A DNA stretch of 62,500 nt, counting the filler, from Platydemus manokwari (taxonomy: Eukaryota), in the NCBI GenBank assembly GCA_037951405.1. It is 6 parts of 6 records of this genome, joined end to end, with 100 filler letters (N's around TTAATTAATTAA, not from the genome) between each part and the next. Parts side by side here need not be neighbours in the genome. Positions count along the whole stretch, not along the records: positions 32,346 to 43,088 come from JBBMOY011108997.1; 5 more parts are not named here. One strand, given 5' to 3'. Below the pieces are notes generated by a model. The model saw only the letters and a program-made list of their open reading frames with translations. It searched no databases and was not told the origin of the DNA. Shown here one piece after another: positions 38,170 through 41,157 of the stretch; position 1 is the first letter of the stretch; every line of letters begins with the position of its first letter. Both the position numbers and the translations under genes were made by a program.

Positions 38170-38665
38170 AAAATACTTACAGATAATAAACTCCACACTC
38201 AACCGATAACAATCAATTAACTTTAAGATCTCTGATCCAAAACTCGATGAAACAAATGTGTTTAAACTAATGTGTCTTACTGTTAGGTATTCCAGCAAAA
38301 GAGTGTGCCTGTATGGAATCCTGATCTTCGACAAAGAATGATCCTCTCCTGTGCTGTTCTTAATTGCAAATTGGGTCGTGACTTTGTTTATAATAATTCT
38401 CCAATAGGCACCAATCATTTTTACGTTTGTGTTTGAATTTATAATCTCAGGGAAAACTTTTCTGCGATTCAATTTATTACATTGCGGAATTTTCTCCAAT
38501 TAAATTTAATCTGCCGAATATTTTATTCACTGCCTCTATTAATTGTGCTAGATAATAGGCGAAAATTTATTTGTTAGTGCTATTGCGAGCTTATATGTTA
38601 CAGGTTATTTCTTATATTATTTTATGGATAAATTTATTATACAGGAAATTTTAATGGATTTTTCA
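38170..38665 (-). repeat. Spliced promoter-unit family, copy A (inverted, most diverged)
   Basis: Shares ATTAAATTTAAT (38499-38510), a TATAAA (38387-38392) and TTTGCTGGAATACCTAACA|GTAAGA (donor 38280) with copies B and C. Confidence 0.65.
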
Positions 38666-39159
38666 GATATTATTATTTTAATAATCAAATATTTATGAAT
38701 AATAATTATTATAAATATCATTTTAATAAACTGATTTAAATGATGATTTTCAAGAATAATATAAAAAATAAATATTGGTTAAATTCAAGCCAAAAAGAAT
38801 ATAATAAAAATTGATACAGATGGTAAATGTTCATAATACGTATCGTCATTCAGAATAATAAATGTGATATACAATATCATAAAAATTGGCACATAACGTC
38901 ATACAAATGTTGGGGTTCTGGCCCAACAAGTTACTTAAAACAATTAATCTAAATTGAAAAATATGTGAATACATCTGCATGAAAATACGTATAAAATGTG
39001 TAATTATTTTTATTGTACTAATTTTTATTTAATCAATGTGTTGTTTTTTTTTATCTTGACACTTTGGAATTTCCGAGTAAAGACCGGTTAGAAATATTGA
39101 TATTTATAATATTTATTATTTATATATCCGTAGAATAATGTCAATAAAATCACCAATAT

Positions 39160-39950
39160 CAAACCCTTCGAAATACCATAAAATAATAAATTAATTTATA
39201 AAATATCAGTACGCAATAAGATATCGCGCATTAGCAGCGACAAATAAATTGTCATCTATTTTCGAGCTGGAAAATTCTGTCGCAGAATAAAAAAATTTAC
39301 TCGATTAAATTTAATCGAGAGATATTTTCTCTTTCTAATAAATTTATTCAGAGAGAATTTTTTTCATCAGTTAATAAATTCACTGGCATTAGATTTAATC
39401 ACAGAAAATATCTGGGAGTGATTTATACGGCCTATATAAGGCAGTAATAACGATCAACATTGCCATAATTCTCGTTCACAAATTACTGCGGTTATTGTCA
39501 CTGTCCGACGTTATATGTTATATCAATTGAAGAAGACCCATCATTTAAATCTCAACTTGACGCACTGAAGAAGATCATCTGGTGCAGAAGACCAATTTTC
39601 CTGTATATGCCCGGCATTTGCTGGAAGACCCAAAGTAAGACCGTACCTGTAAAATACTGATTCATATTATATACTGTATCGTCATATTTCTTATTATAGA
39701 GCTGTGCTCTAAAAATACTCTGGTGAAGATAACATTGGTTTTACTCCGAGAGTTAGGCGTATAAATCGCTTTGCTGTAGAATTGTAAGGTTGCTTTATAC
39801 CATTTTTTATTGAATGTATAGTGTAGTTTCAAAATCAATCTGTAATTTCATTTTATTATTGTTGTTGATTGGTTTTATATTAGTGTTATATTTAATAAAC
39901 ATTTTTAATGTTAAAGTTTTAGTTATTAATCAATAGGGATCATAAAATCA
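39160..39950 (+). repeat. Spliced promoter-unit family, copy B
   Basis: CTATATAAGGCAGTAA at 39432-39447, intron GTAAGA..TATAG at 39635-39699, AATAAA at 39894-39899, end motif TAGGGATCATAAAATCAT. Confidence 0.75.
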
Positions 39951-40024
39951 TTGTTTTTAATCAATTGTAAAAATATAGTTAATAATTTAATTAGGTTTTG
40001 ATAATTTTTAGTCTGATATTTAAG

Positions 40025-40230
40025 TTAATTAAACGTATCACTACTGCCGCGCCTATTTTCATCACACAATAAGGCTGTGTGAGGTGAAGGAACATCAAAA
40101 TTAAGCAGATTACACCTGTAGCCTTAATCAAGAACTCATAGTGACTGATTATGACAGTAGTGATATCAAATAGGATAAGCTTAGTAAAACAATAAAATCA
40201 ATAAGACCCGAACTTAACACAAAAATTGGT
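40025..40230 (-). repeat. Dispersed repeat family R copy
   Basis: Reverse-complement match to 31838-32040. Confidence 0.75.
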
Positions 40231-40452
40231 TCGATTTAGTTATTTTGTAAAAAAATTGTGTGTATCAATGTATAAATTTTATTAGGTGTATAACAGCATT
40301 TAATGCATGAAATTTTAATGTAAAACATTTTTAAGTGAGTTCAGAGACATTTTGAGACCAAGAGGAATATACTATACTATAATGTAATTTAGTTCAAACC
40401 CTAATTAATAATTCCCATAATTAATAAAAACTTGGCATTTATATAAATAAAT

Positions 40453-41157
40453 TAAACCCGTTAAAATTACCATATAATAAATTCACTTATTAAAACAATA
40501 CACATAGTGAATTTATCGATGAAATAATAAAGTGAGATAAGTTATCGCGCATAGCGAATAAAATAATATCCATGCATTAAATTAAATTTCTCTCTGCTAT
40601 AGTGAAATTAATTGCAGAGAATTTCTTTCTGTCACAATAGATTCCAGTGCAATAAACATATATGCACTGCATTAAATAAATATTCACAGAGAATATCTGC
40701 GAATGACTCACTGCTAACTATATAAGGCAGTAACCACAATCAGCACTGCACAATTTTTACATAAGAAAAGCCAGGACGTAACATTCTAAGTCATTCACTG
40801 CCGGGATTAGGATTAGAATATGCCCAGTATTTTCTACTGGAAAATCAAACAGTAAGATTATGCATTTAAAATAATATATTTATAAATATCGCATATTCTT
40901 CCAATTTACAGAGTGTAGGCTCAAAAATCTTCTTGAAAAGTACTTTTACCCAATATTGACGGAGGGTCTTATTGGTCTATAATCTTATTCCCTGAATTAT
41001 ACATTAATTCCAACGTCTATGTGTAAATAACTATCAATAAAATTATAACTACATAAAAGTATTAAATTTGTAATATTTATTCTCAATACATATTTTGGCG
41101 TTAAAATTAGTTTTGATATTCATTTAGCGTTTAACTTTTAGGGTTCATAAATTCATC
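40453..41157 (+). repeat. Spliced promoter-unit family, copy C
   Basis: CTATATAAGGCAGTAA at 40718-40733, intron GTAAGA..TTACAG at 40852-40911, AATAAA at 41036-41041, end motif TAGGGTTCATAAATTCAT. Confidence 0.75.

Follow-up and report, generated by a model that had tools for sequence, protein, structure and literature searches.

What kind of unit recurs here in strongly diverged copies, with promoter-like and splice-like signals in place and no common protein, is the question raised by this locus of Platydemus manokwari (assembly GCA_037951405.1). An earlier note had described three such copies and offered two answers, namely a spliced ncRNA or small-RNA precursor family, or solo LTRs that contain an intron. 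The window, i.e., the whole stretch of 62,500 nt analysed, has a GC content of 27% and consists of parts joined by N-spacers, with units A, B, and C in the piece 32346–43088. Genes for Cwc15 and for a WD40 protein also occur in it, together with fragments of CCCH zinc-finger and reverse-transcriptase sequence. A tree of Cwc15 with 37 rows (36 picked among the 120 listed) placed the Cwc15 of the window on a long branch adjoining parasitic flatworms, which would suit a flatworm-like host, and long-branch attraction is possible.

Rather than three copies, we found four (A–D) plus a probable fifth tail (E):

37898..38903, minus strand: copy A, with its 3' end at 37898 (GTAACA); its 5' side abuts B or is interrupted by B
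38908..40219, plus strand: copy B, complete LTR-like element of 1312 bp (TGTTGGG...CTTAACA), delimited by contig-end pile-ups
38904..38907, plus strand: left copy (CAAA) of the perfect 4-bp target-site duplication of B; right copy at 40220–40223
40383..41310, plus strand: copy C, complete LTR-like element of 928 bp (TGTAATT...AGTAACA)
40379..40382, plus strand: left copy (ATAA) of the perfect 4-bp target-site duplication of C; right copy at 41311–41314
31839..32245, minus strand: copy D, donor module and 3' tail; its 5' part is removed by the N spacer at 32246
41315..41560, minus strand: probable copy E, a decayed 3' tail only, from tail alignments against shuffles
39992..40219, plus strand: shared 3' tail as present in B, predicted U5 and integrase end, with 80% identity to D across 230 nt

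The relatedness of A, B, and C proved to be above chance, as had been claimed; their local scores (A-B, B-C, A-C) were attained by 0/200, 0/200, and 1/200 dinucleotide shuffles, respectively. A, B, C, and D all run on into a common tail ending in TAACA. For E, tail alignment scores were matched by 0/500 shuffles against D, 3/500 against B, and 4/500 against A, and a donor-like stretch beyond its tail was not significant (295/500 shuffles). The limits first given for the units were too narrow, with B extending about 250 and 270 nt, and C 70 and 150 nt, further on the left and right sides, respectively. The TAGGG-type motif of B and C (TAGGGWTCATAAAWTCAT at 39934 and 41139) is present as described but is internal (285 nt inside B and 171 nt inside C) and does not mark the end of the unit.

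The limits of B were set by contigs from a single DNA run (n = 6825 at 80% likeness), which is possibly the source sample. Loose contig ends piled up at 38908 (67 contigs) and at 40219 (99 contigs), with an agreement of 0.44 each among the matches listed (6 of 1336), and the flanks leaving B at both ends were mutually unrelated sequence. In this one run, B is therefore a dispersed, multi-copy unit with fixed ends. Both of its ends fit the motif TGTTRNR..YNYAACA (PMC3601003). The ends of C were chosen by eye, from TG/CA candidates and a depth step near 40380; they agree with TGT..ACA and depart from the full 7-nt motif (PMC3601003). Where the earlier note saw no clear target-site duplication, both complete copies (2/2) carry a 4-bp one, for which the chance of a random 4-mer match is 0.9% each; in B the ends were fixed by the pile-ups, independently of the duplication. 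One contig (n = 1) joined 38859 to 40220 without B, representing an empty or related site. Summed contig depth, which gives no copy number and is read solely as a sign of a very abundant repeat, was 806–87,334 in the ten bins that overlap B (>1,000 in nine of them), 113–5,041 in C, and 100–2,041 over most of A. The outermost flank bins showed 12–50, and one flank bin at 37300 showed 474.

The internal layout of the units is anchored by three features:

39260..39431, plus strand: palindrome-rich predicted U3 enhancer region of B, including a perfect 20-bp palindrome
39432..39447, plus strand: TATA box string of B, identical at 40718–40733 in C (sequence match)
39894..39899, plus strand: AATAAA of B, 259 nt past the donor; its counterparts lie at 41036 in C (184 nt) and at 38065 in A (215 nt)

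The identity of the TATA string in B and C (CTATATAAGGCAGTAA at 39432 and 40718) was confirmed, and RNA would start about 28 nt past it. The order of TATA then AATAAA is kept, and the U3-R-U5 borders are predicted from it; B (40191) and D have an additional AATAAA 29 nt before their 3' ends. Across the 4.6 kb, contig depth was greatest (87,334) in the bin 39302–39455. As for the predicted U3 region, it is without a canonical three-unit heat-shock element (pattern from PMC12801592). A single loose match to a hammerhead core regex (n = 1) was observed on the minus strand within the U3 palindrome. Smaller motifs reported for all three copies were largely recovered: TCGC..TAGC at 39224, 40545, and 38588 (minus strand), and T(G/A)CTGGAA at 39619, 40835, and 38297 (minus strand), the latter with one further unrelated match at 7038. 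The AAA(C/T)CC block was found by regex in C and A, while in B the regex did not match and the block was placed by alignment. Copy A departs from B and C in two points: the 16-nt TATA string is absent, and the acceptor lies 11 nt beyond the homologous site.

No protein appears to be kept by these units. The micro-ORF starts noted in B and C are indeed present (MPGICWK and MPSIFYWK), but a conserved micro-ORF was rejected: the ATG-to-donor phase differs (1 in B, 2 in C), A and D have no ATG, and one listed group (17 contigs) carries an additional base ahead of the donor. This agrees with the proposal that it is the signals, not a protein, that are kept.

Judging by their ends and layout, the units are very probably solo LTRs, because B has the end motif, TATA precedes AATAAA, and neither Ginger-type inverted nor TRIM-type direct repeats are found. 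The option of a solo LTR with splice signals, already raised in the earlier note, thus gains from the sharp ends, target duplications, and high copy. Each unit would be the LTR remaining after recombination between both LTRs of a full element. In the window flanks of all copies, no gag-pol, primer-binding site (PBS), or polypurine tract (PPT) was seen next to any copy, so the "LTR" assignment is based on ends and layout. A 4-bp target duplication favours Ty3/gypsy over Bel/Pao or copia, and Ty3/gypsy is the likely superfamily given this duplication and the end motif. Animal Metaviridae LTRs are described with short inverted ends, TATA, and AATAAA (PMC3601003), and a 4-bp duplication is reported for an LTR retrotransposon of a tapeworm, solo LTRs included (PMC4558846).

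Other repeat classes were also considered. Long terminal inverted or direct repeats were not found in B or C, and a TRIM was rejected since the direct terminal repeat scores (24 in B, 22 in C) lay inside the shuffled range (means about 22, maxima 37 and 31). A Penelope-like pseudo-LTR was likewise rejected, with the ends of B fixed, no Rfam match, and no hammerhead found. Searches of the units returned 0 matches in Rfam at the gathering score or E<=1 and 0 in ARAGORN. Scanning metagenomes for the motif turned up 9 loci (GC 40–61%), all attributable to chance; their BLAST-type matches were 5 of 19–22 nt with A or B, plus a single 23-nt match with D. A viral-contig motif scan gave 0 loci. Beside D lies a decayed pol-like stretch (about 30.6–31.8 kb, motifs by eye); one of its eight fragments had a weak Pfam match (E=0.063), and comparison of the fragments with PDB gave no meaningful match. 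Since its orientation is opposite to that of D, it is more likely that D was inserted into this stretch than that D is an LTR belonging to it.

If the units are solo LTRs, the remaining question concerns their splice-like signals, for which the following were annotated:

39610..39642, plus strand: hairpin (CCGGC/GCTGG) and GTAAGA donor-like module of B, at the depth peak and with no listed variant in its core
39635..39699, plus strand: candidate intron of B, 65 nt, with a branch-like CTGAT at +23
40852..40911, plus strand: candidate intron of C, 60 nt, with a hairpin CCAGTA/TACTGG just upstream
38232..38280, minus strand: candidate intron of A, 49 nt, with its acceptor 11 nt off the B/C position
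32065..32141, minus strand: candidate intron of D, 77 nt, with its acceptor 10 nt off and a branch-like CTAAT at +24

The GT..AG stretches of A, B, and C, with AG next in each, were as previously described. GTAAGA, which resembles a 5' splice site, occurs in 4/4 copies, and the combination CTGG-N8-12-GTAAGA was observed four times in the window, each time in one of A, B, C, and D, where 0.12 occurrences were expected. The hairpin and GTAAGA module sits 105–174 nt beyond the predicted start, and RNA from the LTR promoter would cross the donor at this distance.

Conservation was checked over 201 nt of B (39570–39770) using 712 contigs; 40 of 63 variant rows were listed, the smallest with a 3.0% share, and those beyond would be rarer than 3.0%. 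Contig depth peaked at 39612–39639 (70,000–81,000) and fell to about 2,000 at the B acceptor. Among the rows listed (40 of 63), there was no variant in 39618–39628, 39633–39642, or 39650–39661, while neighboring positions 39629, 39643, 39649, 39662, and 39663 varied by 36–68%, which indicates that the 3' arm of the hairpin, GTAAGA, and the branch-like block are kept in divergent relatives. The hairpin/donor block is thus the best-conserved spot of the 201 nt examined. The donor is strongly conserved and the acceptor less so. Among sequences closely related to B, the region of the acceptor was also quiet (one variant row, 4%, at the G of AG). Three groups of loose ends were found at 39679–39682 (among the 6 of 73 groups listed), of which one keeps the AG (25 contigs) and two are without it (18 and 9 contigs). 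A YAG follows within 77 nt in 4/4 copies but at two positions, as A and D have theirs 11 and 10 nt downstream of that in B and C.

We lean toward reading the hairpin and GTAAGA module, on this pattern of conservation, as a functional U1/donor element inside the predicted R region of the LTR. The donor would lie in R upstream of AATAAA, and would do so in both LTRs of a full element, which must therefore suppress its 5' poly(A) signal. At the 5' end, U1 bound to the donor likely restrains the AATAAA that the LTR itself carries downstream. Alternatively, or additionally, the donor would start splicing, with either the nearby AG or a site in the lost internal region as acceptor. By the logic of LTR replication, reverse transcription of RNA spliced within R would lose the intron, so the full element would also need to copy unspliced RNA. 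The whole stretch is kept in the DNA copies, so the RNA that was reverse-transcribed must have been unspliced here. An exact intron-less DNA copy was not seen among the joints listed (2, from 712 contigs), where contigs drop rare variants and miss divergent subfamilies. A self-renewing intron, whose end would repeat the sequence before the donor, was rejected, as 445–955 of 1000 shuffles reached the score in all four copies.

A sub-case of this functional U1/donor reading is that the solo LTRs carry a complete short intron of host type in R, routinely spliced from the translated RNA, with unspliced RNA being packaged. We see this as a tentative possibility. The candidate lengths (49–77 nt) and GTAAG..YAG ends agree with five introns predicted in the WD40 gene, which are AT-rich and 47–129 nt long, and the candidates thus fit the host form. 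No full-length relative of the WD40 gene was found at E<=1e-20, so these host introns are delimited through reading-frame continuity. The presence of a YAG within 77 nt in every copy would also be consistent with a complete intron, as would the branch-like CTRAT motif in two of the four copies (B at +23, D at +24), whose surroundings in B (39650–39661) show no listed variant, and the drop in GC content within the candidate intron (0.28 vs. 0.40 for B, 0.20 vs. 0.36 for C). However, no CTRAY is present in C and A, the drop in A is small (0.33 vs. 0.39), and the B acceptor AG is missing from two of the three listed loose-end groups. Moreover, an AG-free run of at least 60 nt is common, as it follows 12 of the other 69 GTAAG sites and 12% of positions taken at random.

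The structure around the donor was considered by eye and by folding. The upstream arm of the hairpin pairs with TRCTGG (pairs by eye), through C-G in B vs. U-A in C and D, a difference that amounts to one event in related copies. Compared with shuffles, this first hairpin was significant in C and D (2/300 each) and not in B (43/300) or in A (161/300, computed with the donor one base off). The TTT-RCTGG arm would pair either with the upstream arm, leaving the donor free, or with the donor, which would then be masked. The predicted masking helix has −6.2 to −9.2 kcal/mol, a value that 0–1 of the other 69 GTAAG sites equalled; relative to shuffles that preserve composition, it was clear in A (14/1000) and D (9/1000) and not in B (161/1000) or C (63/1000), all of these being related copies. 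A two-state hairpin switch is therefore modestly supported as a prediction. A foamy-type switch dependent on U3 was not supported, because predicted donor access with vs. without U3 was not consistently changed in A, B, and C (assumed start). Combining hairpin and intron, an animal Ty3/gypsy lineage might hold a complete micro-intron of host type in the R of both LTRs, with a two-state hairpin gate that sorts identical transcripts into spliced messenger and unspliced packaged genome. We consider this combined proposal fairly doubtful; if true, every solo LTR would be a ready promoter with first exon and intron.

The conserved block could instead be a promoter-proximal DNA element, or an RNA packaging or dimerization hairpin, within a solo LTR in which the match to GTAAGA is incidental. 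Conserved stem-loops are known in long R regions (PMC3601003) and the acceptor is labile, both of which would suit such an element, but the invariant letters include GTAAGA, 8–10 nt outside the hairpin at variable spacing, and a branch-like block follows it in B and D. This explanation is, in our view, unlikely.

Readings that do away with the LTR are, taken together, highly improbable. A non-autonomous Ginger-type DNA transposon deserves very little credence: Ginger elements share TGTNR ends, 4-bp duplications, and introns with the units (PMC2836005), but their inverted repeats measure 40–270 bp (PMC2836005), whereas the ends of the units match in 6 of the first 10 and 9–10 of the first 20 bases, a score not above shuffles, and the duplications at B and C are not CCGG/CCGT. 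A host family of spliced ncRNA or small-RNA precursor genes, the other answer of the earlier note, is barely credible, since the promoter, donor, and AATAAA kept in order without an ORF would suit it but the units are present in many dispersed copies with sharp ends, target duplications, unrelated flanks, very high depth, and no Rfam match. The units are a dispersed mobile element and not an ncRNA family, and single copies may have been co-opted.

Solo LTRs are an ordinary class, to which these units mostly conform, and the conserved donor block is their one real, testable oddity. If the U1/donor reading is true, a splice donor or whole intron is kept under selection in the R of an invertebrate retrotransposon, which bears on how two identical LTRs serve as start vs. 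end and on the separation of translated from packaged RNA. Many promoter-plus-donor cassettes would then be spread across the host genome. In the literature covered, we found no animal Ty3/gypsy LTR described with a conserved donor or intron in its R. The units resemble animal Ty3/gypsy (Metaviridae) LTRs in their short inverted TG..CA ends, TATA then AATAAA, 4-bp duplication, and high copy (PMC3601003, PMC4558846). They differ in that the passages of these sources considered here describe no conserved splice donor or intron in R, and no internal region was seen with the units. The donor of the Drosophila element Springer lies 43 nt outside the LTR (PMC13097621), and a Ty3/gypsy element that exports unspliced RNA has been described (PMC10309623). 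In flatworms, solo LTRs start spliced transcripts, and the LTR donor there is possibly present by chance (PMC4558846), whereas the donor here is the best-conserved block of 201 nt.

A donor in R is already well studied in foamy viruses, the closest tested precedent, in which U1 on this donor suppresses 5' polyadenylation (PMC3694450). The predicted donor of our units would likewise precede AATAAA within R, in each of the two LTRs, with possible structural masking. However, the element here is an invertebrate retrotransposon with a longer predicted R (donor to AATAAA 184–259 nt), the masking would be local, with no consistent U3-dependent change predicted, and a nearby acceptor may complete an intron (compared with PMC3694450). 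Donors inside LTRs are also known from mouse MaLR/MTA elements, which combine promoter and splice donor in one LTR that is usable from solo LTRs (PMC13408016, citing Franke et al. 2017); in contrast, a branch-like motif and YAG also fall within the LTR here, and the phase of the ATG is not conserved. Finally, a short intron retained in a terminal repeat is already known from Penelope, whose pseudo-LTR holds a start site and a 75-bp 5'-UTR intron that is kept after retrotransposition (PMC8557442). Penelope-like elements show 5' truncations, partial tandems, and typically hammerheads (PMC8557442), whereas our units have two fixed ends, TG..CA termini, and 4-bp duplications.

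Four related LTR-like copies, namely the three diverged copies A, B and C together with E, a probable decayed 3' tail, almost touch one another inside 3.7 kb of the window (37898-41560). B is located at the 5' end of A, and the gap between C and the 3' end of the probable E is a few tens of bases; this near-abutting arrangement suggests nested insertion or a hot spot. The first 21 nt of B (38908-38928) by themselves form an inverted repeat, TGTTGGG...CCCAACA. The other features of the window are as follows.

Other features of the window (coordinates, strand where assigned, description)
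30600-31800, plus strand: decayed pol-like region
32346-32871: additional LTR-like piece, which terminates in CCCAACA and has its TATA box at 32383
48826-50127: reverse-transcriptase fragments, then a stretch that by eye looks like a restriction-like endonuclease
21807-22525: open stretches, tandemly duplicated
25769-27080, minus strand: WD40 gene, inferred to contain five introns (47-129 nt)
34483-35130: Cwc15 gene, intronless and fast-evolving
2803-3238 and 29020-29485: repeat pair
29708-30000 and 58506-58771: repeat pair
13244-13532 and 52762-53021: repeat pair
59091-59404: self-inverted stretch
9682, 22716, 32246, 43089 and 52475: spacers at contig joins

Identities within the three repeat pairs fall in the range of 67-76%. 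The apparent 100-nt repeats of 100% identity are not biological, being the contig-joining spacers themselves (N44-TTAATTAATTAA-N44). With regard to host genes, we take the WD40 gene to be WDR82-like, and Cwc15 has two relatives at 89% and 84%, with its best full-length named matches at ~51%.

When the additional LTR-like piece was compared with A, B and C, local scores were 22-29, which is chance level under the scoring used. Along the pol-like region, RT-, then RNase H- and then integrase-like motifs were recognized by eye, and many frameshifts and stops interrupt it. The reverse-transcriptase fragments and the endonuclease-looking stretch that follows them probably represent a decayed non-LTR element. 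The duplicated open stretches returned no match in a Pfam search; their motifs resemble those of family-B DNA polymerases, and they are possibly a Polinton-like remnant.
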